A stretch of 64,000 nt of DNA from the sequence record PZ229304.1; one strand, given 5' to 3'. Below, piece after piece: positions 6,188 through 64,000 of the stretch. The first letter of the stretch is position 1; each line of letters opens with the position of its first letter. The translations under genes were made by a program, and so were the position numbers. The stretch comes from a phage. The notes below the pieces were generated by a model. It did no database searches. It had not been told where the DNA came from and saw nothing but the letters and a program-made list of their open reading frames with translations.

Positions 6188-6188
6188 T

Positions 6189-6665
6189 TCAACCTCTCTT
6201 AATTTGTTTAACAAGCATAGGAACAAAGTCTCGTTTTAAAATTTGTTCAATAATATGATCAGGTAGCTGTTGGAAATTATAATTAAAAGCTACTGTCTCA
6301 CCTTTAGGTGTTTCTACCCGCACATATAACATGTTACGAAGTTTATCCACTTGTGCTGTATATTCTAAACCATGTAATTGATGCATTGCAAACATCAAAT
6401 CATCAGTTTCAGTTTGGAATCTATCCCTTCCCTGCATCAAGGACAAGGAAAAAGGTAGATTTTCCCTAAGAGCCACCTTCTTAGGCACTAGTGAAGGGAA
6501 ATACTCCCCAATAACTGCCTGTGTAAGCTGAATACACTCTTTTTCAAGCTGGTTTTGTTCCTTGAGTTCACAAACACTCTTTTGTAAAGTGTTAACCTCT
6601 TTTTGCAAAGCTGCTAGTTGAGCACTTAACTTTCTTTTTTGATTACGACCAAAACGTTTAGACAT
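6189..6665 (-). CDS. hypothetical protein
   Basis: 158-aa track ORF, ATG start. Confidence 0.45.
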   Translation of the reverse strand: MSKRFGRNQKRKLSAQLAALQKEVNTLQKSVCELKEQNQLEKECIQLTQAVIGEYFPSLVPKKVALRENLPFSLSLMQGRDRFQTETDDLMFAMHQLHGLEYTAQVDKLRNMLYVRVETPKGETVAFNYNFQQLPDHIIEQILKRDFVPMLVKQIKRG

Positions 6666-15008: not shown

Positions 15009-16202
15009 ATGGCAGCACCAAAATCATGGGAACAATATAAAGAAGAGTGTCAACCTATTGCGAATAATAAAGGGATTGAGATCCTAGGATATGTTGAACC
15101 GTTTATAGGTTGTGATACGAAAATGATTCTACGCTGTAGGCAGGAACATGAATGGAAGACTTGTAGTATTAGTAATTTCAAGCACGGTAACAGTTGTCCT
15201 ATCTGTTCTGGTAAGAAGCCGTTAACATGGGAAACAGAATTGCCGATCTTGGAAGAGATAGCACAGAAGAAGGGGTATCAGGTGTTAGGGTACGTTGGAG
15301 AATGGAAAGGGAATAAAACAAAACTTGATTTGTTGTGCCATTGTGGGAATAGATGGCAAAGTACAGCAATTCATCAATTTAAAGGCGGTCGAGGTTGTCC
15401 ACAATGTAGGGGGGAGAATACAAGGAAGGCACTAACAATGTCCGACGATCAACATATTGCAGATTTCTTTTCTACAGGGAAATTTAAGGAAGGCACTATC
15501 TTCACTAACACAGGAACACGGAGTAAAGGATGCAGGCATAGTATCTGGATGGTTGAATGTCCTGTTTGCTCTCATGATGAATATGTTCAAGCAGGTGTTT
15601 GTGATGGTAAATTTTACTCTGAAGGAAATAACCTTAAACGAGGGTGCATTCCGTGTCGTTGTGGAAACTATCGGTATACAGAAGACCAGATCACCTATAG
15701 GGTAAAAAAGGAAGTAGAAGGGCAAGGGTATGTCTGGGTAGGTTGGATCGGTAAACCGTCTAGAAGTCACGGTAAGTTTAAATATCTTTGTCTTGTGCAT
15801 GGGGAACAGACAGGGAGGGCTAATAACTTATTAAGCCTCGGTCAAGGTTGTCCACAGTGTGCTGGTCATAATCAACAGCAATTATATATTAATATTGTTA
15901 AAGATAATGATATTATAGTGGCTCTTAAGTTTGGTATAGCTAAAGATAGTGATAGGCGATTAAATAGTCAAAATAGTTGTAATATGTTTTTTATGGAGCG
16001 TATTTGTTTATATGATTTTAGCACAGTGAAACAATGTAAGGCTGCTGAAAGAGCTATAAAGAAAAAATTAAAAACTGGTATTTTAACGGAAAGAGAGTTG
16101 AAAGACGGTTATACAGAAACAGTAAGTGTTTCTGATTTGGAAAATCTTCAAGAAATTATTACACAACATGGTGGCAAATTAGTATATAATAAGGAGATGT
16201 AA
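15009..16202 (+). CDS. tandem zinc-ribbon repeat protein with C-terminal GIY-YIG-like (T5orf172-type) putative nuclease domain
   Basis: About four repeats of GY..G.....K......C..GH.W.....F..G..CP.C.G (CPICSGKK, CPQCRGEN, CPVCSHDE, CPQCAGHN); C-terminus YINIVKDNDIIVALKFGIAKD..RRL..N...ERI.LYDF resembles the T5orf172/GIY-YIG pattern by recollection. Confidence 0.5.
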   Translation: MAAPKSWEQYKEECQPIANNKGIEILGYVEPFIGCDTKMILRCRQEHEWKTCSISNFKHGNSCPICSGKKPLTWETELPILEEIAQKKGYQVLGYVGEWKGNKTKLDLLCHCGNRWQSTAIHQFKGGRGCPQCRGENTRKALTMSDDQHIADFFSTGKFKEGTIFTNTGTRSKGCRHSIWMVECPVCSHDEYVQAGVCDGKFYSEGNNLKRGCIPCRCGNYRYTEDQITYRVKKEVEGQGYVWVGWIGKPSRSHGKFKYLCLVHGEQTGRANNLLSLGQGCPQCAGHNQQQLYINIVKDNDIIVALKFGIAKDSDRRLNSQNSCNMFFMERICLYDFSTVKQCKAAERAIKKKLKTGILTERELKDGYTETVSVSDLENLQEIITQHGGKLVYNKEM

Positions 16203-16754
16203 ATGCGGATTACTGATAAATATGTGTTCTTCTTCTCGGCAAAAGATGAATTTAGCAACTGGTATCTATCATCTTTTATTGAACCTTTAGCTCCCAAGTA
16301 TAATAATTCTATTACAAGTTCTGTTGAATTTACTTGTGTGGAACAATATATGATGTGGAGAAAAGCATGTTTGTTTTATGATTACAACATTGCATCTTCT
16401 ATTTTAACCGGAGATCTAAGATATACAGGAGAAAAAGAACAGGCATATTATAAGCGACTAGGTAGATTAGTTAAAGATTACGATGAAGCTACTTGGACTT
16501 CTTTACGGGAGAAGATTGTCAAGCGTGGTTTGTATCTTAAATACACACAAAATGAAGATCTCAAAAATAAACTTATCGCTTACGCAGATAAGGAGTTCGT
16601 AGAGGCAAGCCCTTATGATTCTATTTATGGTATCAAAATGGGAATGTGGGATCGTGATGTGGAAAATAAGGACTGTTGGAAAGGACAAAATCTTTTAGGA
16701 AAATGGCATACAGACCTTGCTGTTTATCTAAAAGCACAATCTGATATTTCCTGA
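16203..16754 (+). CDS. NADAR (YbiA-like, DUF1768) domain protein
   Basis: FFFSAKDEFSNWYLSSF, FTCVEQYMMWRKACLF and SPYDSIYGIKMGMWDRD..KDCWKGQNLLGKWHTDLAV parallel the YbiA motifs FYS..D.YG.FSNF, TSEHYFQA.KF and D.YWG.G..G.G.N.LG. Confidence 0.7.
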   Translation: MRITDKYVFFFSAKDEFSNWYLSSFIEPLAPKYNNSITSSVEFTCVEQYMMWRKACLFYDYNIASSILTGDLRYTGEKEQAYYKRLGRLVKDYDEATWTSLREKIVKRGLYLKYTQNEDLKNKLIAYADKEFVEASPYDSIYGIKMGMWDRDVENKDCWKGQNLLGKWHTDLAVYLKAQSDIS

Positions 16755-17834: not shown

Positions 17835-17933
17835 GGTATCGCCCTTTCTTTGATGTGCGCCCTGGTTGGCGCGGTAGAAAGATAATAGCCGTTTCCTTTA
17901 TAGATAGCAAGCAAAAAAAGAAATGAAAAAAGA

Positions 17934-18266
17934 TTAAAAAAATGGTTGACGTTCCTCACCTGGTAGCGTAATATTCATCTTGTCGAGGGGGGCAAGGCAC
18001 AACGACAATAAACAATAGGCGGGTGCAATGCATGACGGGCAAAGGTGAGGATCTCCACAATCCACCGTCACAATAACATTACTTATAAAAGGTTGATAAC
18101 GATGATCAAGAAAGAAAATAGCTTGACGGTTGGAACGATTAACGCTATCATTCTCGCCGTTCCATTTTGGATTGTAGTGGCGGTTGTTATTTTCTAAAAA
18201 ATATTCTTGACAACGTTTTTTAATCTGATAAGATGTATCACATAGGGCGGCAATAGTGCCGCTCAT
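17934..18266 (-). CDS. hypothetical Cys-rich protein (uncertain)
   Basis: 110-aa ORF with ATG start, but its 5' end overlaps the promoter/hairpin of the first plus-strand cassette. Confidence 0.2.
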   Translation of the reverse strand: MSGTIAALCDTSYQIKKRCQEYFLENNNRHYNPKWNGENDSVNRSNRQAIFFLDHRYQPFISNVIVTVDCGDPHLCPSCIAPAYCLLSLCLAPLDKMNITLPGEERQPFF

Positions 18267-18286
18267 AACAGAAGAGAGAAATAATC

Positions 18287-18559
18287 ATGGCATCATATAG
18301 CGCATCAATGATCGTAGCTGGCATCACTGGTAAACCTATGCGCGGTGGCGGATCTTTCGCTAACATCAATATTGATGGACGTTTATCCCTGGACGCAGCG
18401 ATCACCGTGGCACGGGAAACGTTTAAAAAAGAATGTAATTTCAATAAACAAGATTATCTCGGTTTCGCTATTGAAAAAACCGCGCGATTTGTGGATTATA
18501 AAAGCCCGAAAATGATCGACACTACACTAAAAGCGCAAGATGTAGCGTTTTTGCTTTAA
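18287..18559 (+). CDS. hypothetical protein (cassette gene)
   Basis: Preceded by TTGACA promoter, CACATAGGGCGGCA..TGCCGCT hairpin and AGAGAG RBS. Confidence 0.5.
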   Translation: MASYSASMIVAGITGKPMRGGGSFANINIDGRLSLDAAITVARETFKKECNFNKQDYLGFAIEKTARFVDYKSPKMIDTTLKAQDVAFLL

Positions 18560-18562
18560 GGC

Positions 18563-18622
18563 TTGACACTGAAAAATACTTTGTTAATATATACCACATA
18601 AGGCGGGGAAATGGTTTCCCGC
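18563..18622 (+). promoter_or_regulatory. sigma70-type promoter (TTGACA-N16-TAATAT) plus 5' leader hairpin GGCGGGGAAATGGTTTCCCGCC
   Basis: Read directly; same architecture recurs through the array. Confidence 0.6.
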
Positions 18623-18645
18623 CAAATCAAAGAAAGGGTAATGCA

Positions 18646-19008
18646 ATGAGCAAGCAAATCAATACTATCATGTTTAATCTGGTATCTTTCCGCGATGACG
18701 TGAAAAACCTTTCGCGTGGTGCAGTGGATGCACGGATCGAAAGCTATCGCACACAGATCGCAACGTTACCGCTGAAACGTGATCAACATGCCGCTAATAT
18801 GATGCTTGATGCTATGATTAAAAAGATGATTCAATGTGATCTTACTCTGGCTTATGAATATGCTGGCGATCTCTTTGTAACGTATAACAAGCCCGTTCCA
18901 GGTATGAGCACCACGGAAGAATTGCATGCCTTAAATCTGCGACAAGATGCATGGGATAACATGCGCCGTGTTATGGTATGGGTAGAAAGCGGCAAAATTT
19001 ACGCGTAA
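18646..19008 (+). CDS. hypothetical protein (cassette gene)
   Basis: 120-aa track ORF downstream of promoter-hairpin unit. Confidence 0.5.
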   Translation: MSKQINTIMFNLVSFRDDVKNLSRGAVDARIESYRTQIATLPLKRDQHAANMMLDAMIKKMIQCDLTLAYEYAGDLFVTYNKPVPGMSTTEELHALNLRQDAWDNMRRVMVWVESGKIYA

Positions 19009-19083
19009 AGATTGACATTACACGAAAACCTGATAAGCTATCTTAAAGCGGGAATAGTTCCCGCTTACATAGGATAAAACTTT

Positions 19084-19230
19084 ATGAAACAATATGTAAT
19101 GAGTATTCATACCAAAAACGGCGCTACTGTTACGACTCCGGCACGGTTTGCACTTGTAAACCGTTGCAAGAGACTAAAACGAGAGCTAAAAAATAACCGT
19201 GCAACCGGTTTTAAACGCTGGGGAGGATAA
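19084..19230 (+). CDS. small basic protein (48 aa)
   Basis: Own translation MKQYVMSIHTKNGATVTTPARFALVNRCKRLKRELKNNRATGFKRWGG; preceded by TTGACA promoter and GCGGGAATAGTTCCCGC hairpin. Confidence 0.3.
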   Translation: MKQYVMSIHTKNGATVTTPARFALVNRCKRLKRELKNNRATGFKRWGG

Positions 19231-19232
19231 TC

Positions 19233-19493
19233 TTGTTTTTTCTAAAAGTTTTTGATAATGTGATCGCTTTTGAACATGCTACGACGTTCGACCTGGCGAG
19301 ATACGCTATCAGGTTTAAAGATAATGTTTATCCCCGTGCTGGCGGCGGTTACACTATTTTTAATCATCGTAACGCTCAATTAACGGATATAACTAATCCA
19401 GGCCCTGGAGTGTATCGCATAGGCTGGCTACCGTCAAAAGACGCGGCAAGCATGTTTAAGGTATGTAAACTACTAACAGAAGAGGCGAACTAA
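19233..19493 (+). CDS. hypothetical protein
   Basis: 86-aa track ORF, TTG start just after GGAGGA. Confidence 0.35.
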   Translation: MFFLKVFDNVIAFEHATTFDLARYAIRFKDNVYPRAGGGYTIFNHRNAQLTDITNPGPGVYRIGWLPSKDAASMFKVCKLLTEEAN

Positions 19494-41260: not shown

Positions 41261-42073
41261 TTACTTAGTCAAATGATCTTCTATCATTTTTATGAAAGCA
41301 GGATTGCTAAAAGCATCTGCTGCCTTTTCTCTATAAACAAAGACTCCTCTATCTTCGTAAAGAAGAGTTTCTTCGTAATTAATTCCTGGGTTAACAACAA
41401 TCATTTTTGTACCCATAGTAAGTGCAGGGAATAATTCCCAATTAAAATTGATAACTTGGTTTGAACATCCTACTACAACAACCAAATCTTGCATGGTCAA
41501 AGTATCAAACAAGTGAGCCATATCTGCATACAAAGGTGCAGCCTCACCAAAAAATACAACATTAGGCTTCACCCAGTTATAATCATCTATGTTTATACTA
41601 TTGTAACCAATGTCTACCAGTGTTTTGTAATCTCCAGGATGCATACGGTAAACTACTTCAGGAAGATATCCGTGCACGTGAATAACAGAATCCCTGTCTA
41701 CACCTGCTCGCTCTAGTAGGTCATCAACGTTTGTTGTCAAGTTTACTACTTGGTTAGGATATTCCTTAAACCACTTTGCTATTTGAATATGTGCAGCATT
41801 AGGTTGTACATCTTTAAGCTCAACACGTCTTTTGTTATAAAATTCGTGTGTTTTGGCATACAAATCCATACCGTTTTCGTCTACACCACCAACCACTGGA
41901 AGATCTGGTGATGTTCTCACACGATAACCTGCTTGGAAAGCTCCAATATCGCAGATCTCTTCTAAATCCCATTCTTCCCATAGGGCACGACCACTATCTG
42001 TGTCTGTTCGGAATGTTCGAATCCCACTGTCTGCACTTAAACCAGCTCCACTAACAAAAATTACTCTTCGCAT
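41261..42073 (-). CDS. Sir2-family (sirtuin-like) NAD-dependent protein lacking the zinc-binding Cys module
   Basis: GAGLSADSGIRTFR, TTNVDDLLERAG, HG, PNVVFFGE motifs; no CxxC..CxxC pairs. Confidence 0.7.
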   Translation of the reverse strand: MRRVIFVSGAGLSADSGIRTFRTDTDSGRALWEEWDLEEICDIGAFQAGYRVRTSPDLPVVGGVDENGMDLYAKTHEFYNKRRVELKDVQPNAAHIQIAKWFKEYPNQVVNLTTNVDDLLERAGVDRDSVIHVHGYLPEVVYRMHPGDYKTLVDIGYNSINIDDYNWVKPNVVFFGEAAPLYADMAHLFDTLTMQDLVVVVGCSNQVINFNWELFPALTMGTKMIVVNPGINYEETLLYEDRGVFVYREKAADAFSNPAFIKMIEDHLTK

Positions 42074-43401: not shown

Positions 43402-44391
43402 CTATTCCTCCATACATTTAAGAATATGTGCAATGACAGGTATAGTCCAACCGTTACCTAACATCTTATATGCTTGTGTGTTACTACTCAGCTTAAAGTA
43501 GTCATCTGGCACACCTTGCAAGCGACAACACTCTTTAACCGTTAACTTTCTATAATGTACGCCTTCACTCAATTTTTCAAAAGCATCTAGATATCTTCCA
43601 GGTGGAATGTAGGCTAATAGTACGTCTTTAGGCACAGTCGTGAGGCAACGAGTTTTTTCACTGTCCTGAACTTCCAAACAATGTACCAAACGATCAGTTT
43701 TAGATGTACTACGTTTGCCATTTTCATTAATTCTACGCCCATATATTGCTGCCGGATAAAAAACCAGTTGTCTGCGACTCTTTTCAAAATACTGTTCTAT
43801 ATTACCACCTTTGGCATAATTTGCATCTATGCAATAAGCCTTATCTCTGTCTACAATACTATCATCTTCAATGATATCTTGCAACACTTCATTGGTGATC
43901 TCCCAGGGTTTTATTTCCCAGTTGCACCAGTATAAACGTTGTCTATTCTGTGCCGTGAAATCTGCGGAGTTAATGAATACGGGATCAACACCTAAGTAAC
44001 TTGTGATCACGTTTTCCCACTCCACTTTCATCTTAACGTTTTCAAGCATGAACTTAACATTAGGATTAAACTTTTTAATATGTTCAAGAATTTCAACATA
44101 TTCGAAGAATAGCTTAGATCGCGGATCTTGAAAGTTCAAACCCTTACCAGAAGAAGAGAAGCCTTGACACGGACTACCACCTAACAAAAGATCAATTTCT
44201 CCCCACGGGATATCCCATTCTCTCCATTTTGTAACATCACCTAACTGAATAATATCTGGAAAATTTGCTTGGCTTTCAGCTATGGCAAATTTGTCTAATT
44301 CTGAAGCATAATATGTATCTACTTCAATACCTGCACTTTTTAGCGCAAGCATTCCTCCTGACATACCATCAAAAAGACTTAAAACTTTCAT
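43402..44391 (-). CDS. DNA (cytosine-5)-methyltransferase, orphan
   Basis: Motif I LSLFDGMSGG, motif IV GGSPCQGFS, motif VI ENV, motif VIII QNRQR, motif X GNGWTIPV; no adjacent restriction endonuclease recognised. Confidence 0.8.
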   Translation of the reverse strand: MKVLSLFDGMSGGMLALKSAGIEVDTYYASELDKFAIAESQANFPDIIQLGDVTKWREWDIPWGEIDLLLGGSPCQGFSSSGKGLNFQDPRSKLFFEYVEILEHIKKFNPNVKFMLENVKMKVEWENVITSYLGVDPVFINSADFTAQNRQRLYWCNWEIKPWEITNEVLQDIIEDDSIVDRDKAYCIDANYAKGGNIEQYFEKSRRQLVFYPAAIYGRRINENGKRSTSKTDRLVHCLEVQDSEKTRCLTTVPKDVLLAYIPPGRYLDAFEKLSEGVHYRKLTVKECCRLQGVPDDYFKLSSNTQAYKMLGNGWTIPVIAHILKCMEE

Positions 44392-52541: not shown

Positions 52542-53042
52542 TTAGTTATAAGCGTCTAATGTTCCAGTTTTAAGTACCTGAATTACACGCTCTGCGCGAT
52601 TAGGCGTTTGGCGATACCATTTACTTTTACGTAAATTTATAGAGGCTTGAGTATAATATGAATTACTCACTAAAGTCAAGCTATTTTTGAAAGATTCTGC
52701 ACCTTTCAATCCCATTTGAAATACCATATTGATAATAGCCATTTTACGATTAGGACTTACTTTATCGTAAATAGGAGATAATATGGTGCTTGAATGGATC
52801 TGTTGTATCGCTTTCTTTACGTCACTCTCAAAGATTTTTCTAGCTTCCGCTTCAGTAATAACCCCATTGGTTTTTCTACCTACTAAGTTATCAAGAATGC
52901 GTATAGCTTCTGCTTTATCTTTGCGTTTTGTCAGAAGGTGTCCAATACCAACTGTCCAATACCCTTCGGTATCAGGATACACAGTTAGCTTTAGTCCTTC
53001 ATCAAAACGTAACATATCAAACACATCAACTACTTTAGCCAT
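52542..53042 (-). CDS. T4-type lysozyme (GH24 endolysin)
   Basis: MAKVVDVFDMLRFDEGLKLTVYPDTEGYWTVGIGHLLTK..INMVFQMG..KSKWYRQTPNRAERV closely parallels T4 gene e lysozyme, including catalytic E, D and T positions. Confidence 0.85.
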   Translation of the reverse strand: MAKVVDVFDMLRFDEGLKLTVYPDTEGYWTVGIGHLLTKRKDKAEAIRILDNLVGRKTNGVITEAEARKIFESDVKKAIQQIHSSTILSPIYDKVSPNRKMAIINMVFQMGLKGAESFKNSLTLVSNSYYTQASINLRKSKWYRQTPNRAERVIQVLKTGTLDAYN

Positions 53043-53202
53043 GTTTTCCTTATATTAGTCGCCCTCCCCATGATCTAGCTCTTGAAACAGTAGGTGTTCA
53101 GGAGACATTTCACGTTTAGGCTTCGTCTTTTTAGTTTGGGACTTAAGCTCTGTTGCCAAAGCACGAGAAAAGATCTTACGTTTCTGTTTACCTTTCATAT
53201 TG

Positions 53203-53469
53203 TTACTCCGCAATCTGAGCCATGAATTCACGTAGTTCAGAAAAACCTCCTACGTGGGTTAGCTGTTCACCATCTTCCACAAAAATCTGAGGAAATGTGC
53301 GTGGTAGAACACCTGTTTTCTCTAAAACCAGATTCTGAATCTGATCTAAAGAATAGTCTTCATCTAAGGTAAGGTATTTAAAATCCTGTTCACGCTGTTC
53401 TAGTAGAATCTTAGCGTTAGTGCAGAAAGGACAATTTGGTTTACCGTAGATAATAAAATTCATTTTCAC
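53203..53469 (-). CDS. glutaredoxin-like protein
   Basis: CPFC active-site motif near the N-terminus, 88 aa, positioned with the RNR genes. Confidence 0.7.
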   Translation of the reverse strand: MKMNFIIYGKPNCPFCTNAKILLEQREQDFKYLTLDEDYSLDQIQNLVLEKTGVLPRTFPQIFVEDGEQLTHVGGFSELREFMAQIAE

Positions 53470-54296
53470 TCCTTGTTTAAAAGTATAGTTAAAGTTCTTA
53501 CAATACCGCTATCAACACTTCGCGGATTTAAAGTAGGATCTGTTTTTAAATAAGATGTTGCTGGTCTGACTGCTTTGGAATTATAGGTTGAAGCAGATAC
53601 AGGATTAACTGTAACAGACAAATCTATAACAAGAAATATCTTTCGTGCAAAATCATACCAAGAAATATAATCTGCACCTGCATAGTGTACAATTTTACTA
53701 TTTACACCATCTTTTACAAGTTTAAAAATTGTTTCTGCAAGATCAGGTGCATAAGTAGGACATGATAAATGATCACATACTACATTAAATTCTTTTTGAC
53801 CACCGTTGTAGCGTTCCAACATAGTTTTCAAAAAGTTATGTCCAAATTCACTATAAACAGAAGCTGTTCTGATAATAAGTGCTGTAGGACAAACTGCTTG
53901 TACTAAAGTTTCACCTAATTGTTTACTGTAACCGTAGGTGTTCAAGGGGTTTGTTTTACTCTCTTCTGTGCCAGCAACATGTCCATCAAAAACATAGTCT
54001 GTTGAAATATGTACAAACTGTATCAGTAAATCATTACATGCTTTGGCAATGTTTGTTGCACCGTATGCATTAACATTTATACAGGTGTTAACATCTTCTT
54101 CAGCTTTATCTACTGCCGTGTAAGCCGCACAATTCACAACAACATCAGGCACGTGCTGTACAAGACTATTCATAACATCTTTAAAGTTGGTAATGTCTAT
54201 ATCACTTGCTTCAATCAAAATAACATCTTCGGGCGCAACTTTTGCCAAAGACTGTCCTAATTGACCTTTTGAACCAAAGACTAAAAATTTTGTCAA
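53466..54296 (-). CDS. rmlD: dTDP-4-dehydrorhamnose reductase
   Basis: GSKGQLG, PDVVVNCAAYTAVDKAE, HISTDYVFDG, YGYSK motifs. Confidence 0.75.
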   Translation of the reverse strand: MTKFLVFGSKGQLGQSLAKVAPEDVILIEASDIDITNFKDVMNSLVQHVPDVVVNCAAYTAVDKAEEDVNTCINVNAYGATNIAKACNDLLIQFVHISTDYVFDGHVAGTEESKTNPLNTYGYSKQLGETLVQAVCPTALIIRTASVYSEFGHNFLKTMLERYNGGQKEFNVVCDHLSCPTYAPDLAETIFKLVKDGVNSKIVHYAGADYISWYDFARKIFLVIDLSVTVNPVSASTYNSKAVRPATSYLKTDPTLNPRSVDSGIVRTLTILLNKE

Positions 54297-54847
54297 AATA
54301 TGATCTCCTTTAGTGTTTTGGCTTGCTGATCTTTTTGTGACAAGATAGGTTTAAAATTAATATCATTAAAGATTAAATCAAAACCCCAATCTATATTGAT
54401 ATCTGGATCATTCCACGCAAGACTACACTCTGAAGTCGGATCGTAATATTCTGTACATTTATATTCAAAATCAGCAATGTCGCTAATCACAACAAAACCA
54501 TGAGCGAAACCAGGAGGAATCCAAAATTGTGTTTTATTCTTTTCAGATAAAAGAACACCTACCCATTCTCCAAATGTTGGACTACCAACCCTAATATCTA
54601 CAGCAACATCATAAACTTCACCACGAACACAACGTACTAACTTCCCTTGTGGGTTTTTCTTTTGAAAATGAAGCCCACGTAGAACTCCTCGAATAGAACG
54701 TGAGTGGTTATCCTGGACAAAGTTTTGTTTACCTATGTATTGATCATATAAAGCCTGATTAAAACTTTCTAAGAAAAAGCCACGTTCATCTCCGTAAACG
54801 TCAGGTTGAATGATCAACAAATCTTCGATTTTTGTTGCTTGAATCAT
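54293..54847 (-). CDS. rmlC: dTDP-4-dehydrorhamnose 3,5-epimerase
   Basis: YGDERGFF, VLRGLHFQ, KLVRCVRGEVYDVAVDIRVGSPTFGEW, IPPGFAHGF. Confidence 0.8.
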   Translation of the reverse strand: MIQATKIEDLLIIQPDVYGDERGFFLESFNQALYDQYIGKQNFVQDNHSRSIRGVLRGLHFQKKNPQGKLVRCVRGEVYDVAVDIRVGSPTFGEWVGVLLSEKNKTQFWIPPGFAHGFVVISDIADFEYKCTEYYDPTSECSLAWNDPDINIDWGFDLIFNDINFKPILSQKDQQAKTLKEIIF

Positions 54848-54860
54848 TTAATTCCCCCTT

Positions 54861-55730
54861 TTATTTTAATTTAAGTAAATACTTACCGTAGTCTGTTTTA
54901 CTTAAAACCTCTCCAGAACTTTTTACAGAGTCTAAAGTAATCCATTCATTTTTAAAAGCAATCTCTTCCAGGCATGCAACCTTCATACCTTGTTGCTTTT
55001 CTATTGCATGAACAAATTGAGATGCTTCCATAAGACTTTCATGTGTTCCTGTATCCAGCCAAGTGAAACCTCTTCCTAGTTTACAGACACGTAAAGTCTT
55101 TTCTTTCCAGTACATCTCATTTATATCTGTAATCTCTAACTCCCCTCTAGCAGAAGGTTTAACGCTCTTAGCTTTCTGTATAACAGAATTATCGTAAAAG
55201 TACAAGCCTGTGATTGCGTAGTTGCTTTTTGGTGCTTTTGGTTTTTCTTCAATACTCACCACTGTACCTTCAGAATCAAACTCAACAACACCAAATCTTT
55301 CAGGATCATTTACGTGATACCCAAAAATATTAGCTCCACCATTCTTTTCAATATATTCTTTAGCAGAATCTAAAATGCTACCAAAACTCTGACCAAAGAA
55401 TAAATTATCACCTAGCACAAGTGCTACAGAATCTTCACCAATAAAGTTCTCACCAATAATAAATGCTTCTGCTAAACCTTTTGGGCTATCCTGTATTGCA
55501 TACTGTAGGGAAATACCAAAAGAAGAGCCATCACCTAGAAGATTTACAAAATTAATTTGATCTTCTGGTGTTGTAATTATTAGTATTTCCCTAATTCCAG
55601 AAAGCATTAGGACAGAGAGTGGATAATAAATCATAGGTTTATCGTAAATTGGTAATAGTTGTTTACTAACCCCTTTAGTAACTGGGTAAAGTCTTGTTCC
55701 ACTACCACCTGCTAAGATAATACCTTTCAT
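54861..55730 (-). CDS. rmlA: glucose-1-phosphate thymidylyltransferase
   Basis: [35 protein letters not shown] signature. Confidence 0.85.
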
Positions 55731-55738
55731 ACTCCTCC

Positions 55739-56728
55739 TTAAACTTTATTTTCCCACCACTCTTTGTTATCTACATACCAATCAATGGTTGAATAAAGTT
55801 TTTCTTCAAATGTGCCTTTAGCTTTCCACCCTAATTCCTTTTCAATCTTATAAGGATTCACTTCATATCTTAAATCATGCCCAGGCCTATCTGTAACCAT
55901 CTCAATGAGGCTACAAGCATCTGTTTCAGATGGATATACCGCATCCATATAATCACAAATCATATAGATTACATCAATATTAGTTCTAGGGTTTCTGCTC
56001 CCAATATTATATGTCTCTCCAGATTTGCCTTTAGTTACTACTAGGTGTAATGCCTCTGCGTGATCGTCAACGTATAACCAGTCTCTTACTTGAAGACCAT
56101 TACCATAAACAGGGATTGGTTTATGCATTAAGATATTTGTTATCGTTTTAGGTATTAGTTTTTCTGGATGATGATATGCTCCAAAATTATTTGAACAATT
56201 TGTTATAACTGTCGGAATACCATAAGTACGATGCCACGCTCTTACCAAATGATCGCTTGCAGCTTTAGATGCAGCATATGGACTACTTGGTTTATAAGGA
56301 TTCTGTTCTGTAAACGGATAATCTCCTTCTTCCAGATCACCATATACTTCATCTGTTGAAATATGATGGAACATTTTAAGATTTGATTTATCTCCCATTA
56401 AACGAACAGCTTCTAGAAGATTAAATGTCCCAACAATATTTGAATTTATAAAAACACTCGGTGATGCTATTGAATTATCTACGTGACTCTCTGCTGCAAG
56501 ATGCATTATATAATCTGGATTAACATCTGCCACAATCTTAGCAGTTAACTGCGCATTTGTCAAGTCAACACGACAAAACTTTACATTAGGTGTTTCTGAT
56601 AAATTCCTAGGGTCTGAAGCGTAACCCCATTTATCTATAACGTAAATATCATTCTTAGTATTTTTAGCTAGGAAACGAACTACCGCACTTCCAATAAAGC
56701 CTAAACCACCTGTTACTAAGTATTTCAT
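55739..56728 (-). CDS. rmlB: dTDP-glucose 4,6-dehydratase
   Basis: [10 protein letters not shown]-terminus and SDR-extended YxxxK (YAASKAASD). Confidence 0.85.
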
Positions 56729-56922
56729 TTAGTCTCCTTCCAATTATTCCCTTCAGTAAAAATAATACCTTCATAAAACAACCATCTGGAACCTTTTTCA
56801 ACAGGAACAGGAAGCTCTTCTTCAGTAAAGTTATAAACCTCTCTAGCATCTTCTAAAAGTGATGCAAATGTTTTTGGACTTACTGTTACGCGAGGAGCAT
56901 TGATCAGTTGATCTAGCATCAT
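56725..56922 (-). CDS. small hypothetical protein
   Basis: Trimmed to ATG 56922 (AAGGAGGA RBS). Confidence 0.35.
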   Translation of the reverse strand: MMLDQLINAPRVTVSPKTFASLLEDAREVYNFTEEELPVPVEKGSRWLFYEGIIFTEGNNWKETK

Positions 56923-56935
56923 TCTACTATCCTCC

Positions 56936-57262
56936 TTACCAAACGTGTTGAGAAATAATAGTTTCCGTTTCAATGTTATATTTTTCAAGAAGTTGTGCAT
57001 AGGCTTCTTTTGCATTTTTATTTAGTTGCTCAAGATCTACAGCTACACTTCCTTCGCCACCTTCTAAATAAATGCCATATATGCAATAAGATTCATCAGC
57101 GTCATAGAAAGGAGAGATACGACTTAAATCAAGACCTTCTTGTAAGAACCAGTTAAAGTCTCCATCAAATTCTTCTTCAACTCTAGGATCTTCTCCTACA
57201 GCTTCTTCCCATTTATTAAAAGGTGCGCCCTGTAACATACGCCATTCAATATTAGTCCCCAT
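56936..57262 (-). CDS. hypothetical protein
   Basis: 108-aa track ORF. Confidence 0.45.
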   Translation of the reverse strand: MGTNIEWRMLQGAPFNKWEEAVGEDPRVEEEFDGDFNWFLQEGLDLSRISPFYDADESYCIYGIYLEGGEGSVAVDLEQLNKNAKEAYAQLLEKYNIETETIISQHVW

Positions 57263-57394
57263 TATCTTCCTCTTCTTCTTCAGTATGAACGAAACCTAAA
57301 CCGTTACAATTCCAACAAGGAATAAATTGTTCCATACTAACAATAAAATTCCCAGTACCACCGCAGATAGGACAAATACTTACATCATCCATTA

Positions 57395-57601: not shown

Positions 57602-57788
57602 ACTTGGCTACACCATTAACTATAATGTGACCGCAAGACATAACTCCTAGCCAATGATCACCATTCTTTTTTAAACGTTTACCGTAAACATCACAGAAAC
57701 CATTCTGTAATTCGGAAGCCTCATAAGAGGCTCCCTTTTCGAAAACGTCTTTGAAGTCAGAAATTAATCCAACACAAAGTAGTTTCAT
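57570..57788 (-). CDS. hypothetical protein
   Basis: 72-aa track ORF. Confidence 0.4.
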   Translation of the reverse strand: MKLLCVGLISDFKDVFEKGASYEASELQNGFCDVYGKRLKKNGDHWLGVMSCGHIIVNGVAKFEIIKGEKDD

Positions 57789-58873
57789 TAAAAATCTAAC
57801 TCCTCGTCATCACTTACATCTTTATTTGCTGAATTCAGTTTGTAAGCTGTAATTTGGATCTCCTGTGCTGCTGCTTGAATTTGATCTGGATTTAACCAAA
57901 CATCCATCCAAGGCAGTGGACTTTTCTTCGGTGCACGGAATTTGTGTTTCATTTTCAGTCTGCGATAGATAGGCGCAGCATTGAAGTAAACCCAAAGTTT
58001 GAACAGCTCTGCGTTACCACCAACGATAATCCTTCCTTCACTAAACAGATAGTCACACCAATCTTCCTCTTGTCCAACTACCGTGTCAAGAATTGCTGTC
58101 AGAACGTCGATATTATCTTCGTATACTTTTCTCCAGACAGGATCTTTCAGCAATGCATCAATAATAGCATAATCCATTTTAACGTGCAATAGTTCATCCA
58201 ACATAATTTTTTGAATGAGTTTAGCTGCACCTACAAACAGTTGCTGCTCTGCTAAGGCAAATGTTGCAGCAAAAGATGATATGAATTGAATGCCTTCCAG
58301 ACCGATAAGTGCAATCATTCCTTTCAGAATCAGTAGACGAAGGTTATCATCCTTCTCAATCAGACCTAGAGCATACTTATGCCCTGCCTCTGCCAGATCA
58401 CTCATTATCTCTTCAACTATACCCATCCTCTGGAAGATTCTTTCGTTCTCCATAATCTGATCGATAACTTCATTTGGATTAGGGATACACTGACGAATAA
58501 TTTCAGAATATGTCAAAGCGTGTAAAACTTCCATTTCTGATTGCTTCATCATCATTGCACATGCTTCGTTGTTGCTTAAAAATGGTGCAAACAAAGTGAT
58601 GATTGATTTAGCAAGTGAATCATTTTCCCATTGGAAAGATAGGTTTTTGATCATAACATCATAGTTGCTTTTAGAACAAGCTACGAAATCTTTTCGTGTC
58701 TGATCTAAGTTTACTTCGTTTTCATCCCAATCTTGCTGTTTTTGTAGTTTGTACAGACGATGCATTTCTGGGTATGTTACATTAATAGAATCAAAAATAC
58801 CTAACTGTTCTCCCAAAAACACAGGGTAGAAACCTTCTTTGTAAGTGTCGTTGTATAAGTTAATTGCTGCCAT
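57788..58873 (-). CDS. nrdB: ribonucleotide reductase class Ia beta subunit
   Basis: Ferritin-like di-iron protein of NrdB length with EMEVLHALTYSEI-type iron-ligand region. Confidence 0.8.
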   Translation of the reverse strand: MAAINLYNDTYKEGFYPVFLGEQLGIFDSINVTYPEMHRLYKLQKQQDWDENEVNLDQTRKDFVACSKSNYDVMIKNLSFQWENDSLAKSIITLFAPFLSNNEACAMMMKQSEMEVLHALTYSEIIRQCIPNPNEVIDQIMENERIFQRMGIVEEIMSDLAEAGHKYALGLIEKDDNLRLLILKGMIALIGLEGIQFISSFAATFALAEQQLFVGAAKLIQKIMLDELLHVKMDYAIIDALLKDPVWRKVYEDNIDVLTAILDTVVGQEEDWCDYLFSEGRIIVGGNAELFKLWVYFNAAPIYRRLKMKHKFRAPKKSPLPWMDVWLNPDQIQAAAQEIQITAYKLNSANKDVSDDEELDF

Positions 58874-59195
58874 TTAAATCCTCCACAATATCGCACATTG
58901 CTTTTATTGTATCAATGTGTTCTCTCTCCATACCATGCTCTATGTAAGCCTTCTCTAATGCGTCCCATACACTCTTTGTGAGTAGTACAGTAACCTCTCC
59001 CTCATACCTTGCCCTGGTTAAAGCATACCAGGTAGCTATGGGATCATTGGAAGCCCATATTTCAACACTGGAAAATTGAAAACCTGCAATATAATTGCAA
59101 CACCAATCGAATGTAAAATCTTTACTATCTACCAGTGTATAATTTCCCCAACGCCTTTGTGGTGTTGCTCCAGGTAATACAACTAATGTAGGCAT
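58860..59195 (-). CDS. hypothetical protein
   Basis: Trimmed to ATG 59195 (AGGAGGA RBS). Confidence 0.4.
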   Translation of the reverse strand: MPTLVVLPGATPQRRWGNYTLVDSKDFTFDWCCNYIAGFQFSSVEIWASNDPIATWYALTRARYEGEVTVLLTKSVWDALEKAYIEHGMEREHIDTIKAMCDIVEDLNGSN

Positions 59196-59204
59196 ATTCC
59201 TCCT

Positions 59205-59232
59205 TAAGAAAGGGGGACAAAGCCCCCTAGTT
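59205..59232 (-). terminator. intrinsic terminator or attenuator between nrdA and downstream genes
   Basis: AGGGGGACAAAGCCCCCT hairpin with T-run on the minus strand, immediately after the nrdA stop. Confidence 0.5.
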
Positions 59233-59235
59233 TCA

Positions 59236-61497
59236 TTACATCTTACAAGCCTCACAACCGGATTCTTCATCCTCTTGAGCGAGTGAGGTTGCCGATTTTG
59301 TTCTACTATTTAGATAGTACAAAGATTTACCACCAAGTTTTGCAAACTGAAGGATATATTGCATTTCTGATTTAATGGATAAACGACCACCTTCCATCTT
59401 AGAGTAGTCAATCCACTTATCACATGATGCACCTTGATCTAAGAATTTAGTCAACAGGCCATATGCTTCAGCCATATCTTTATCTGGCGTATCCCAAGCC
59501 GATTGGTAAATATCTTTTAGTTTATCGTAATCTGGCACAATAAACAGAACATTACCTTTTTGGCTTTGTTTATAAACTATAGTATCTCGTACAGGATACA
59601 CAGAGTTAGTCGTATTACTTACAAGACTACTGGACTCATTTGGAGCAATAGCTGCTAATACGCTATTTCGGATACCACCTTGTGCAATGATATCTTGTCG
59701 TAAACCTTCCCAATCCATTTTAAGTTTAAAATTGCCGATATCGTCTACAGCTTTAGCGTAGGTATCAATAGGCAACCATCCTTCAGGCCACTTGGTTTTA
59801 TGCATCCATTCTGCATTACCTTTCTCTTTTGCCAAACGAAGAGAAGCTCTTGCTAACCAGTAATAATGTCTTTCTGCTAATTCGTGAATTAGTTTTTTGC
59901 CGTAAGGATCTGAGTAAGTAACAAAATTACTTGCCAGATAATGTGCAAGGTTTGTAATACCTACGCCGATAGACCTACGTGCTTTAGCAGTGATTTCGTT
60001 ATGTTTAAACGGATACTGCATTGTTTCAATAACATTATCAATAGTCAGAACGGTATAATATGCAACATCTTCATATTCTTCTGGTGTAACACGACCAGCT
60101 ACAATAGAAGACAGGAAGCATAATGCCAATTCTTGATCTTCTGTATTCTCACCTGTGAAAAGATCAGTCATATTGTGAAATGCTTTCGTAGGTAAGAAAA
60201 TTTCTTGGCACAAGTTTGACTGGTAAATAACATCCTTAAACGGAGTATGCTTATTAGCATTATCCGCAAAGAACATATAAATACGTCCTGTCTCTGCTCT
60301 TTGTGTAATAATTTCTGCCAGAAGATCTCGTGCTTTTACAAACTTCTTCTTAATTCGTTTGCGACTAACTTTTTCATATACTTCTTCAAACTCTTCCTCG
60401 CTTTTATAAAGCGCCTCATAGAGTTCTGGTGCTTCGTCATAACTGACTAGCATCCAATCTTTACCTTTTGCTGCACGGCGCAGGAAAGCATTGTTTACTA
60501 CAATAGAGTAATCAAGTTTATCTACTCGTTTTTCACTAACAGTAGTTGGATTTTTCAAACGTACCAGATCTTCAAAATCAGGTTCTAATATTGTAAACGT
60601 TACTGTTGCACTTCCACCACGGCTTGCTTGTTTTGATGCTCCAACACTTGTTTCCATCCATTTCAGATATGGTAAAAGACCACCGTGAACGATACGGTTG
60701 TTCTTAACACCTTGTCCTGTAGCACGGGTTTGGAGGTTAACACCAATACCTGCATTATTCAATGTATATTCATGAGCAAGATAGTTAGCAATTGCTAAAG
60801 ATTCTGCTGTATCATCTGCTCTAAACAGACAACAAGAAGCACTACCTTTAATCTTAGTACGCAAAGTTGTTAAATAAGGCGATGGTAAATTAATCTTAAG
60901 ATCACTTACGTAGGTATATAGACGTTTAATGTCTTCTACTCTGCGATCTTTTGGTTGAATTTCCATTACCTTCATTGCTACACCAATGAATAAAAACTGT
61001 GGTGATTCAAAAACAACATCATTGATCGCATCTTTCACAAGATACTTATCAACCATCTGGCGCAGTACGGAATAACCATAAGTTAGGTTTTTATCGTGAT
61101 TGACAATTTTACCAATCTCAATAATTTCTTCTTCTGTATAATCCATTTTTCCCCAATAGCCTTTACTTACAGACATATTGTAGAAATCCAGGAGGGAGGG
61201 GATATTGTGATATCCCCCATGAGCCTGTTTATAAATCATACCAAGAAGTAACCGACCTGCCATATCACTATATGCCTGATCTTTCTTATCAATACATGCT
61301 GCTATCATAGCTTTATGTAAATCACGAGTAGGCACACCGTCGTAACAACGTTTAACAGCTTCGAGTTCAATTTCAGACCAATTTAATTTACCAGCAGCAA
61401 ACTCTGACCATTTACGAAGTTTTTCTGGATTAAATTCTTCTTTCTTGCCGTTTGTTTTTGTTACATAACGGATAGATTTGCTTAGATACTGAGTCAC
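59236..61497 (-). CDS. nrdA: ribonucleotide reductase class Ia alpha subunit
   Basis: 753-aa ORF with NLCQEI and C-terminal CEACK Cys pair; adjacent to nrdB and glutaredoxin. Confidence 0.85.
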   Translation of the reverse strand: MTQYLSKSIRYVTKTNGKKEEFNPEKLRKWSEFAAGKLNWSEIELEAVKRCYDGVPTRDLHKAMIAACIDKKDQAYSDMAGRLLLGMIYKQAHGGYHNIPSLLDFYNMSVSKGYWGKMDYTEEEIIEIGKIVNHDKNLTYGYSVLRQMVDKYLVKDAINDVVFESPQFLFIGVAMKVMEIQPKDRRVEDIKRLYTYVSDLKINLPSPYLTTLRTKIKGSASCCLFRADDTAESLAIANYLAHEYTLNNAGIGVNLQTRATGQGVKNNRIVHGGLLPYLKWMETSVGASKQASRGGSATVTFTILEPDFEDLVRLKNPTTVSEKRVDKLDYSIVVNNAFLRRAAKGKDWMLVSYDEAPELYEALYKSEEEFEEVYEKVSRKRIKKKFVKARDLLAEIITQRAETGRIYMFFADNANKHTPFKDVIYQSNLCQEIFLPTKAFHNMTDLFTGENTEDQELALCFLSSIVAGRVTPEEYEDVAYYTVLTIDNVIETMQYPFKHNEITAKARRSIGVGITNLAHYLASNFVTYSDPYGKKLIHELAERHYYWLARASLRLAKEKGNAEWMHKTKWPEGWLPIDTYAKAVDDIGNFKLKMDWEGLRQDIIAQGGIRNSVLAAIAPNESSSLVSNTTNSVYPVRDTIVYKQSQKGNVLFIVPDYDKLKDIYQSAWDTPDKDMAEAYGLLTKFLDQGASCDKWIDYSKMEGGRLSIKSEMQYILQFAKLGGKSLYYLNSRTKSATSLAQEDEESGCEACKM

Positions 61498-62277: not shown

Positions 62278-63249
62278 TCACCATTTTGTATGATTAGTCA
62301 AAAGTTGACGATGTTGAATCCAACCACAGAAGTTTCCACTCCACAAACGATGTTTACGATCCATATGTGTAATACCTTCCTCCCAAGAAGAAGGGAACGG
62401 AGGCATATTAATACCATCTTTCTGTTGTTTTAATCCTGACAGATCCATTTCTTTCATTGGCGTTGCCTGGTGTTCAAACGGAGATGCATGTACCTTTTGT
62501 CCAGACAGCAAACGAGAATAGATATCCAATGCTTTATCTTTAGTATCATTCAATTTACGATAACTTACCTGAGCGCAACAAGAAGCTGAAATAGCTTTTG
62601 CTTCCTCTTCTGTCAACATTTTCTCGTTGGAGAAGGTTTCACCCAAGAAATAACGGATCATACCAGTTTCTGGATCTCGATCACGATTAACGTAAGGTGT
62701 ATGCCATTCCCCTGGGAAAAGAAGATATGGTTCAGAAGATTCATACAGTTTTTTAATTTCTTTAGCAAGAGCCTCAATAGTAGGATCTGCATCAGCATCC
62801 ACGCGCAACCACAAGAAGTTTTCTAGCTCTGTAGTTGTTACTACAGTCTTCATACGTTGGAATGGTTCTAGTAGGCGGTTTGCAACCTGTTTATGATAAC
62901 CAGCAAGGGCAAACTCTTCTGCAAAACGTGCAGCACTTAGCGCAGCTAAGTCCCACCATTCTTTTGCAGTGTAACCTGCATCAATCAGGGCATCGTGATC
63001 TGTGCCTTTATCTTGCATACCTGGTTGGTTAGCACCAAAACGATAAGGACGTGCTGGAGATTGCCGTACCATTTCAATTAGAGTTTTAACAGGAATAGCT
63101 CGACTTGATGCGGCATTACGAGAAAACAAACGATGCGTCATCAATTCAGAGTGAATGATTCGGGGATATTCAAGTTCAAAGGTAACAATATCTTTACCTT
63201 CAGATGTTTGAGAGTGTGCAATAATTTTTGCTGAAATAGAATTTGTCAT
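62278..63249 (-). CDS. ThyX-like flavin-dependent thymidylate synthase homologue (atypical)
   Basis: THRLFSRNAASSR fits the ThyX RHR-x7-S signature except the first Arg is Thr; protein is longer than typical ThyX. Confidence 0.55.
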   Translation of the reverse strand: MTNSISAKIIAHSQTSEGKDIVTFELEYPRIIHSELMTHRLFSRNAASSRAIPVKTLIEMVRQSPARPYRFGANQPGMQDKGTDHDALIDAGYTAKEWWDLAALSAARFAEEFALAGYHKQVANRLLEPFQRMKTVVTTTELENFLWLRVDADADPTIEALAKEIKKLYESSEPYLLFPGEWHTPYVNRDRDPETGMIRYFLGETFSNEKMLTEEEAKAISASCCAQVSYRKLNDTKDKALDIYSRLLSGQKVHASPFEHQATPMKEMDLSGLKQQKDGINMPPFPSSWEEGITHMDRKHRLWSGNFCGWIQHRQLLTNHTKW

Positions 63250-63258
63250 TATTTCTCC

Positions 63259-63849
63259 TTAAGGTAGTAAAATACTTTCAATTTCTTCCCACTGATTATC
63301 TAAACCAGTGATAATTACATTAGGAAGTTTCTTTAACTCTTCCAAGTATGGATCTTCGTAAATAGTGTTGAAATATATTTTCAACGTTTCATCTGGAAAT
63401 AGGACAAGATTTTCAGCCCTATCGTCAATAGTTACGTCGCAAGGTAATAAGTATTTTTCTTTTGTTGCGAAAAAACCATTACCAGATGTTCTACTAAAAT
63501 CCACTTTATCTAAAGATCGTGTTACGTGTCTATATTTAGAACTAAGGTGTCCACCCTTAGTGTGGCTCGCTATAGATATATTAGCTCCATTTGCAATTAT
63601 ACGATGAACAACATCTGTACTATTAGGTACTACTCCCATAGTATCATATAGATGTTGGTTATCCCAAAAAGAGTAAGGATCTACACCAAATTGCTTTTTA
63701 AAATCAGGGAAATATTTCGTAATATCGTAGTGCACAGTTTTATGTGTCTTATCAAATTTGATATTAGATCTACTTACCGCATTTAACCAATTTAACCATT
63801 CTATATCTGCTGGAGCTATTACTAAATCCCAATCACATACTAGACGCAT
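63259..63849 (-). CDS. putative HAD-family 5'-deoxyribonucleotidase
   Basis: Trimmed from GTG at 63963 to ATG at 63849 (AGGAG RBS); N-terminal LVCDWDLV resembles the HAD DxD motif; weak. Confidence 0.35.
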   Translation of the reverse strand: MRLVCDWDLVIAPADIEWLNWLNAVSRSNIKFDKTHKTVHYDITKYFPDFKKQFGVDPYSFWDNQHLYDTMGVVPNSTDVVHRIIANGANISIASHTKGGHLSSKYRHVTRSLDKVDFSRTSGNGFFATKEKYLLPCDVTIDDRAENLVLFPDETLKIYFNTIYEDPYLEELKKLPNVIITGLDNQWEEIESILLP

Positions 63850-64000
63850 TATTTCTCCTGTTATAACATTTTCTACACATTGTTTCGTAAATGTCTTCTC
63901 CTCCAATAACAATCTGTTCTTTAGAGTCGATAAGTCTAGCATTGAAAATAGCTTTTCTTCCACATTTACAAATGCTTTTCAATTCTGTAATTGAATCTGC
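63833..64000 (-). CDS. tdk: thymidine kinase, C-terminal part; N-terminus lies beyond the window end
   Basis: Own translation of the minus strand from 64000: ..ITELKSICKCGRKAIFNARLIDSKEQIVIGGEDIYETMCRKCY.., the zinc-ribbon C-terminus typical of Tdk; stop at 63833-63835. Confidence 0.7.
   Translation of the reverse strand, partial: ADSITELKSICKCGRKAIFNARLIDSKEQIVIGGEDIYETMCRKCYNRRNNASSM

Follow-up and report, generated by a model that had tools for sequence, protein, structure and literature searches.

The window analysed here is a 64,000-nt stretch of phage DNA (sequence record PZ229304.1), and its subject is a block of four genes, rml, for the synthesis of deoxythymidine diphosphate (dTDP)-L-rhamnose. 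The genes lie contiguously on one strand within 53466-56728 and are transcribed in the order rmlB-rmlA-rmlC-rmlD. Each has a counterpart in Escherichia phage phi92:

55739-56728, minus strand: rmlB, dTDP-D-glucose 4,6-dehydratase, 329 amino acids, first gene of the cluster; phi92 gp067
54861-55730, minus strand: rmlA, glucose-1-phosphate thymidylyltransferase, 289 amino acids; phi92 gp066
54293-54847, minus strand: rmlC, dTDP-4-dehydrorhamnose 3,5-epimerase, 184 amino acids; phi92 gp065
53466-54296, minus strand: rmlD, dTDP-4-dehydrorhamnose reductase, 276 amino acids, TTG start; phi92 gp064

The genes are tightly packed. There are 8 nt between rmlB and rmlA and 13 nt between rmlA and rmlC, and rmlC overlaps rmlD by 4 nt. 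Both ends of the cluster are also joined to their neighbors by 4-nt overlaps, rmlB with a small open reading frame (ORF) upstream and rmlD with a glutaredoxin gene downstream. A scan for promoters and terminators found no terminator-like site inside the block, and around the cluster the counts of both equaled chance expectation.

All four proteins score above the cut-offs of NCBIfam equivalog models: RmlB with 442.5 bits against 365.1 (TIGR01181), RmlA with 472.1 against 360.65 (TIGR01207), RmlC with 260.4 against 155.75 (TIGR01221) and RmlD with 253.8 against 224.05 (TIGR01214). The profiles are covered end to end for RmlA, RmlB and RmlC, and over positions 1-261 of 285 for RmlD; Pfam families concur for all four. 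When aligned to solved enzymes, RmlB is closest to Salmonella RmlB (1g1a, E 7e-117) and keeps GxxGxxG, STDEVYG and YxxxK, and RmlA is closest to Salmonella RmlA (1iim, E 5e-125) and keeps GGSGTRL, LGDN, EKP and WLDTGT. The best match of RmlC is Salmonella RmlC (1dzr, E 6e-64), with the His of LRGLHFQ, the Lys of GKLVRC and the Tyr of YK.T.YY kept; Asp170 falls outside the printed alignment. RmlD matches Clostridium 1vl0 and Bacillus 3sc6 best (E ~4e-44), with Salmonella 1kbz lower (6e-35), and keeps GxxGxxG, STDYVFDG and YxxxK. The first-pass annotation had described a complete, contiguous and co-oriented RmlA-D pathway in a phage and had raised the possibility of truncated genes. The description holds and no truncation is seen, as all four minus-strand ORFs are intact and their catalytic motifs are kept. 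We conclude that the four genes are an intact, complete RmlA-D pathway whose products are predicted to be active enzymes.

The window belongs to a phi92-like coliphage of the genus Justusliebigvirus (Stephanstirmvirinae). Over 53000-57300 it has 99.3% nucleotide identity to phi92, and 54 further records match the rml region at 95-99% nucleotide identity. Over 25 kb the best match is vB_Eco_J-01 (98.9%), and there is no identical record in the collection, so PZ229304.1 adds a new isolate to a genus that is already well sampled. The gene set itself is already known. In phi92, gp064-gp067 are the same four genes in the same order with the same neighbors; they were annotated as the four rml enzymes in 2012 and were remarked on in two later surveys. 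Olsen 2020 called the phage dTDP-rhamnose pathway peculiar and proposed DNA modification from its genomic setting (PMC7552041), and in the BASEL paper by Maffei et al. 2021 the pathway in phi92-like phages was likewise called peculiar (PMC8594841). Within the collection covered, our literature search found no paper that tested the function of these phage rml genes. The gene set thus adds nothing new, and its value lies in the testable question of its purpose.

Four unannotated records in this group are labelled as Campylobacter jejuni phages: MG065639, MG065645, MG065656 and MG065689 ('Campylobacter phage' A150, A145, C3 and A110a, respectively). In both the rml and the glycosyltransferase region they match genomes of E. 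coli Justusliebigvirus at ~98% identity, and the host label is probably wrong or the sequence a contaminant.

The rml cluster was matched in 132 records by megablast and in ~160 records by blastn. In every relative that we inspected, rmlC and rmlD are at the same locus, between the genes for glutaredoxin and NrdB. All four genes are present in Klebsiella phage 05F01 and Pseudomonas phage PsgM04F, and only rmlC and rmlD are at the locus in Phapecoctavirus anhysbys and Klebsiella phage FKP3; in 6 further records blastn covers only the rmlC/rmlD part of the query. The conserved minimal set is therefore rmlC and rmlD, with rmlA and rmlB absent from some relatives. Protein identity to the window's enzymes is 62% for RmlC and 54% for RmlD in Phapecoctavirus anhysbys, and 62, 71, 69 and 51% for RmlB, RmlA, RmlC and RmlD in PsgM04F. 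That the genes are kept at 51-71% protein identity across distant relatives points to purifying selection over a long divergence.

PsgM04F (OR584014) is unusual in its host. It was isolated on Pseudomonas coronafaciens, an unexpectedly distant host for Stephanstirmvirinae, and is syntenic with the E. coli members of the subfamily across the rml region. Its homologues of phi92 gp164 and gp165 are 72-75% identical.

We found one disrupted case among the ~130 records. Phage cardinal (PQ567651) has a single 302-amino-acid RmlB::RmlD chimera (positions 4001-4909 of the stretch examined), in which RmlB residues 1 to ~126 run into the C-terminal part of RmlD at a shared ISTD motif. The deletion removed rmlA and rmlC and left the glycosyltransferase cluster described below intact. 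Cardinal was still isolated as a plaque-former, so the phage pathway is dispensable on at least one host.

We also looked for these genes in complete E. coli genomes. The rmlA/rmlB part is matched by blastn in all of them (5426 of 5426), through rffG/rffH of the enterobacterial common antigen (ECA) locus and often through rfbBA. We could detect rmlC in 2189 of the 5426 (40%), and at ~65% identity blastn may miss some. RmlC and RmlD thus catalyze the steps that have no counterpart in many hosts and that are always present in the phage, which argues that dTDP-L-rhamnose itself is under selection.

The phage genes do not look like a recent loan from the host. Phage rml and E. coli rfb/rff genes share ~65% nucleotide identity, and the GC content of the rml genes is 34.5-35.1%, against 37.2% for the window; the low identity and the lower GC together rule out recent capture from E. 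coli. The sequences indicate that the cluster has long resided in the phage lineage and is adapted to the phage genome. Since the nearest solved structures are from Salmonella for RmlA, RmlB and RmlC and from Clostridium and Bacillus for RmlD, the acquisition was possibly mosaic.

The first-pass annotation had recognised no glycosyltransferase near the rml genes. For the window this stands: among ORFs of at least 70 amino acids other than the two ribonucleotide reductase (RNR) genes, Pfam gave no glycosyltransferase family (the ORFs were scanned as a concatenation and the helicase separately). The caveat is that Pfam scarcely picks up even the glycosyltransferases of phi92, and a very divergent enzyme in the window could escape the scan in the same way. 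It does not stand for the genome as a whole, because all close relatives carry four adjacent glycosyltransferase genes. In phi92 these are gp163-166, at 102.2-105.4 kb between the primase-helicase and the endolysin. In phi92 coordinates they lie ~14-17 kb past the window's left edge, a distance that we derived from one alignment offset and that assumes colinearity with phi92 across the record ends.

The cluster consists of two GT-A enzymes and two paralogous GT-B enzymes. The paralogues, gp163 and gp164, are 40.6% identical, belong to one PHROG and have weak GT-B (group 1 / family 4) Pfam matches. Structure models show GT-A folds with an invariant DXD motif; in gp166 the GT-A enzyme is minimal (its 99%-identical homologue P0018 was modelled with a predicted local distance difference test score, pLDDT, of 94.9). 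The solved structures closest in fold are polysaccharide and teichoic-acid glycosyltransferases and protein O-glycosyltransferases; RmlT, which uses dTDP-rhamnose, and dTDP-bound SpsA are among them. Sequence searches of gp163-166 against PDB chains and NCBIfam gave nothing meaningful, and Foldseek against viral models gave only generic GT2-like or GT25-like matches, many of them unnamed. For gp165 there are two weak matches, one to Pfam TAGT (23.4 bits, below the cut-off of 27.5) and one to phrog_842, beta-glucosyl-HMC-alpha-glucosyltransferase (E 5e-5 over 42 residues), and each covers only the generic GT-A N-terminus.

All 56 Justusliebigvirus records have the glycosyltransferase cluster at an identity of at least 95%, a count equal to that for rml, and the cluster is present at ~70% identity in ~80 further, more distant Stephanstirmvirinae records. 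Protein searches with each of gp163-166 returned 142-147 Stephanstirmvirinae-type records, and the number of 'Escherichia' records in each of these searches (106-107) is the same as for rml. The rV5-type sheath relatives that we inspected are in none of the gp163-166 or rml match lists. This co-occurrence is consistent with a functional pair.

Within the genus, two records of Justusliebigvirus alia (OZ035770 and OZ035799) differ in this cluster, which aligns in two pieces over ~71-72% of its length. In OZ035770, gp164 is 66.6% identical to the phi92 protein and gp166 is 99.5% identical, a difference that suggests that one GT-B gene has been exchanged for another allele within Justusliebigvirus.

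Distant homologues of gp165 and gp166 in unrelated phage contigs are found beside genes for nucleotide-sugar metabolism. A 34%-identical homologue of gp166 sits between terminase and portal in an unrelated 50-kb phage contig, where its neighbors are a GT2 enzyme, a polysaccharide deacetylase, methyltransferases and a UDP-galactopyranose mutase. Another gp166 homologue stands at the head of a cluster that also encodes GT-D-like and TOD1-like transferases, a DegT aminotransferase and a nucleoside diphosphate (NDP)-sugar dehydratase/epimerase. A 135-kb contig carries a 44%-identical homologue of gp165 with an NDP-sugar dehydratase/epimerase directly upstream, and this homologue is beside primase-helicase and DNA polymerase, the same position as in phi92. 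These neighborhoods hint that such glycosyltransferases may work with phage-made nucleotide sugars.

The sole other large phage group with gp165 homologues is a set of 341 Mycobacterium phage records. The gp165 family corresponds to the N-terminal domain of gp96 of Cheoctovirus Burwell21 (profile E 2.7e-23), which is part of a glycosyltransferase cassette at the right end of that genome; the adjoining protein is 85.5% identical to Che8 gp110. F1 mycobacteriophages such as Che8 are described as having glycosylated capsids in the portion of PMC11256854 that cites Freeman 2023.

We believe, somewhat more readily than not, that the role of the rml cluster is to supply dTDP-L-rhamnose, independently of the host, to the phage's own four glycosyltransferases. 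In the infected cell the operon-like block would turn glucose-1-phosphate and deoxythymidine triphosphate (dTTP) into dTDP-L-rhamnose by way of RmlA, RmlB, RmlC and RmlD. The donor sugar would then be guaranteed for gp163-166 whatever the O-antigen type of the host, and the four enzymes together would build a rhamnose-containing glycan. Enterobacterales hosts already make dTDP-4-keto-6-deoxyglucose for ECA through RffH/RffG, and given this supply RmlC and RmlD would be the steps that the phage must bring. RmlA and RmlB could act as a flux booster, one that some relatives have lost. The identity and intactness of the genes, their conservation, their co-occurrence with the glycosyltransferases and the host gene distribution are what we observed; enzymatic activity, the coupling of rml to the glycosyltransferases, and the acceptor, are what we infer.

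As for the acceptor, we tentatively favor a phage protein, in particular a virion protein, by analogy with the glycosylated virions of mycobacteriophages, and place it ahead of both DNA and a glycan of the host envelope. It is accordingly possible, and we would put it no higher, that a virion protein or other phage protein of Stephanstirmvirinae carries a rhamnose-containing glycan built by gp163-166 from phage-made dTDP-L-rhamnose.

Several points weigh against a supply role of this kind. The co-occurrence of rml and gp163-166 is largely vertical inheritance in one subfamily and is weak as independent evidence, and the two clusters are ~75 kb apart. No donor specificity can be assigned to gp163-166 from sequence or fold. 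Cardinal keeps the glycosyltransferases with its rml genes collapsed, so there is no strict need for the phage's own pathway. Both clusters are in DNA-metabolism/replication modules, the setting that first suggested DNA modification (PMC7552041). On the mycobacteriophage side, gp108-110 of Che8 have no detectable similarity to gp163-166. The link between rml and the glycosyltransferases comes from genomic comparison and not from experiment.

We also considered a candidate glycosylation site and rejected it. The tail sheath of phi92, gp130 (17840-19246 of the stretch examined), has a serine/asparagine-rich C-terminal tail, NRTANSQNSNSSTVSS. This tail is specific to Justusliebigvirus and does not track the glycosyltransferases: it is absent from Phapecoctavirus ESCO5, Klebsiella FBKp34 and rV5, and ESCO5-type phages carry the glycosyltransferases.

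The first alternative to the supply role is that the phage enzymes remodel the host envelope by altering or starving the host's surface glycans. Rhamnose could be put onto undecaprenyl pyrophosphate (Und-PP)-linked intermediates, or RmlC and RmlD could drain dTDP-4-keto-6-deoxyglucose from ECA (its Fuc4NAc sugar) or O-antigen synthesis, and in this way superinfection would be blocked or progeny kept from sticking to debris. These phages read several surface glycans. However, they are strictly lytic, and a short latent period would leave little time to build a surface glycan. A purely draining role is a poor fit to RmlA and RmlB, which would make more of the shared precursor available. The phi92 annotation lists no flippase, polymerase or ligase as a partner, and there is no experimental hint of envelope remodelling. 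We consider it unlikely.

DNA glycosylation, with the glycosyltransferases putting rhamnose on bases of the phage genome (as with the DNA sugars of T4 and RB69) and so evading nucleases, is the explanation that Olsen 2020 proposed (PMC7552041), and both rml and gp163-166 are indeed in nucleotide-metabolism/replication modules. The sub-threshold matches of gp165 to TAGT and phrog_842 point the same way, but they are limited to the generic nucleotide-sugar-binding part that any GT-A enzyme has at its N-terminus. Against it, phi92-like phages are sensitive to six restriction-modification systems, and Bas60-62, which belong to this type, were called 'exceptionally susceptible' to restriction of types I, II and III 'despite a putative dTDP glycosylation machinery' (PMC8594841). 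There is a gene for a C5-cytosine methylase in the window, and several DNA methylases are encoded by phi92, from which we would expect ordinary cytosine in the genome. By Pfam there is no dCMP/dUMP hydroxymethylase or TET/JBP family in the window, and none is annotated in phi92; the ThyX-like gene of the window is common to relatives without rml. Genome-wide glycosylation is unlikely, although rare, sequence-specific modification of DNA may occur. Taken as a whole we hold DNA glycosylation to be improbable.

Another explanation is that the cluster is a dispensable passenger, functional genes left over from an old capture that bring no benefit in most conditions. Cardinal, which lost rmlA and rmlC by recombination at the ISTD motifs of rmlB and rmlD and still forms plaques, fits this explanation, and so does the absence of rmlA and rmlB from some lineages. 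It is very doubtful all the same, because rmlC and rmlD are unbroken and occupy the same locus in each of the inspected relatives, in genera that have diverged to 51-62% protein identity, and because disruption was seen only once among ~130 records.

Manipulation of the nucleotide pool, with RmlA sequestering dTTP as a dTDP-sugar and the sugar itself irrelevant, is suggested by the setting among RNR, glutaredoxin, ThyX-like and nucleotidase genes and is hardly credible, since relatives drop RmlA (the sole enzyme that uses dTTP) and yet keep RmlC and RmlD, an AT-rich genome (37% GC) needs its dTTP, and sequestering a nucleotide does not take four enzymes.

The roles initially listed for the pathway were glycosylation of virion proteins or DNA, modification of host surface polysaccharide and diversion of dTTP. 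Glycosylation of a protein, possibly of the virion, fares best, although its support is thin; diversion of dTTP and glycosylation of DNA throughout the genome agree least well with the RmlC and RmlD core, the restriction sensitivity and the C5-cytosine methylase.

If a virion glycan is indeed present, these would be the first phages of Gram-negative hosts with a glycosylated virion. It would also be a glycan in a group that is used in therapeutic cocktails and has one of the broadest E. coli host ranges, where it could affect antibody recognition and stability and would bear on immunogenicity and pharmacology. If instead sparse modification of DNA or of a host glycan is true, there would be a new mechanism of anti-defence or exclusion. 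The rmlC/rmlD core, and the 60% of E. coli genomes without detectable rmlC, make the purpose of the pathway testable by simple deletions.

The rml genes had also been described as embedded among RNR, glutaredoxin and thymidylate genes, and we located all of these around the cluster, along with a methyltransferase gene further away:

43402-44391, minus strand: full-length C5-cytosine DNA methyltransferase (Pfam DNA_methylase, 144.8 bits)
53203-53469, minus strand: glutaredoxin (Pfam Glutaredoxin, 45.4 bits; NCBIfam GRX matches sub-threshold), not part of the pathway
56725-56922, minus strand: small conserved ORF of 65 amino acids, homologue of phi92 gp068 (phrog_27883, unknown function, E 7e-50)
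57788-58873: NrdB, class Ia RNR beta (from the ORF translation and the phi92 annotation)
59236-61497: NrdA, class Ia RNR alpha (on the same basis)
62278-63249: ThyX-like protein (Pfam Thy1, 36.9 bits)
63259-63963: nucleotidase-like protein

The position of the glutaredoxin gene is kept in Phapecoctavirus, the Klebsiella relatives and PsgM04F. The small gp068-type ORF is absent from relatives without rmlA and rmlB. The other DNA methylases of phi92 mentioned above are known from its annotation.

Some other genes in the window deserve a mention. Between nrdB and nrdA there is a 136-amino-acid ORF without a Pfam match (58860-59270, minus strand), and at this junction phi92 has a 218-amino-acid HNH endonuclease, gp074, instead. 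This looks like a presence/absence polymorphism of a homing endonuclease inside the RNR operon. A UvrD-type helicase of 937 amino acids (3413-6226, minus strand) has an insert of ~350 amino acids after its GDEFQ motif. Cys is the first residue of the insert, HN are its last two and another Cys comes directly after it, and helicase residues 267-613 match Pfam Intein_splicing (32.8 bits) and Hint (27 bits), both just below the cut-offs; the insert appears to be an intein. There are also three genes related to NAD or ADP-ribose: within 15009-16754 on the plus strand, a CapR-homology-domain protein (126.6 bits) with an adjoining NADAR-domain protein (121.4 bits), and a Sir2-family protein (41261-42073, minus strand, 76 bits). 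Counter-defence or host-takeover functions are possible for them.

Compared with known systems, the phage cluster has the same four enzyme families and chemistry as the bacterial rmlBDAC/rfbBDAC and rffG/rffH genes of Enterobacterales, in the order B-A-C-D rather than B-D-A-C. Unlike a bacterial O-antigen rfb cluster, it has no adjacent O-unit glycosyltransferase, Wzx/Wzy or ABC transporter (by Pfam, among the window ORFs), and it is embedded in phage nucleotide-metabolism genes.

T-even phages have sugars on their DNA, glucosyl-hydroxymethylcytosine in T4 and arabinosyl-hydroxymethylcytosine in RB69 (PMC6024577). They share with the phi92-like phages a lytic myovirus lifestyle and sugar-handling enzymes that adjoin nucleotide-metabolism genes. 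The phi92-like phages differ in having no hydroxymethylase (by Pfam in the window and by annotation in phi92), in being sensitive to restriction, in having a C5-cytosine methylase and in using a dTDP-sugar rather than a uridine diphosphate (UDP)-sugar as the predicted donor.

Viruses that make rhamnose for their own particles do exist. Mimivirus and chloroviruses synthesize it for capsid or fibril glycans by the eukaryote-type UDP-L-rhamnose route, so both the enzymes and the hosts differ from those of the phage dTDP-L-rhamnose pathway. Like the phi92-like phages with their gp163-166, mycobacteriophages with virion glycosylation of the Che8 type encode several glycosyltransferases in one cassette away from the structural genes. 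In contrast to the phi92 type, we saw no gene for nucleotide-sugar synthesis in either of the two mycobacteriophage cassettes that we inspected, and virion glycans are reported for the F1 phage Che8, whereas the Stephanstirmvirinae system is known here from its genes.

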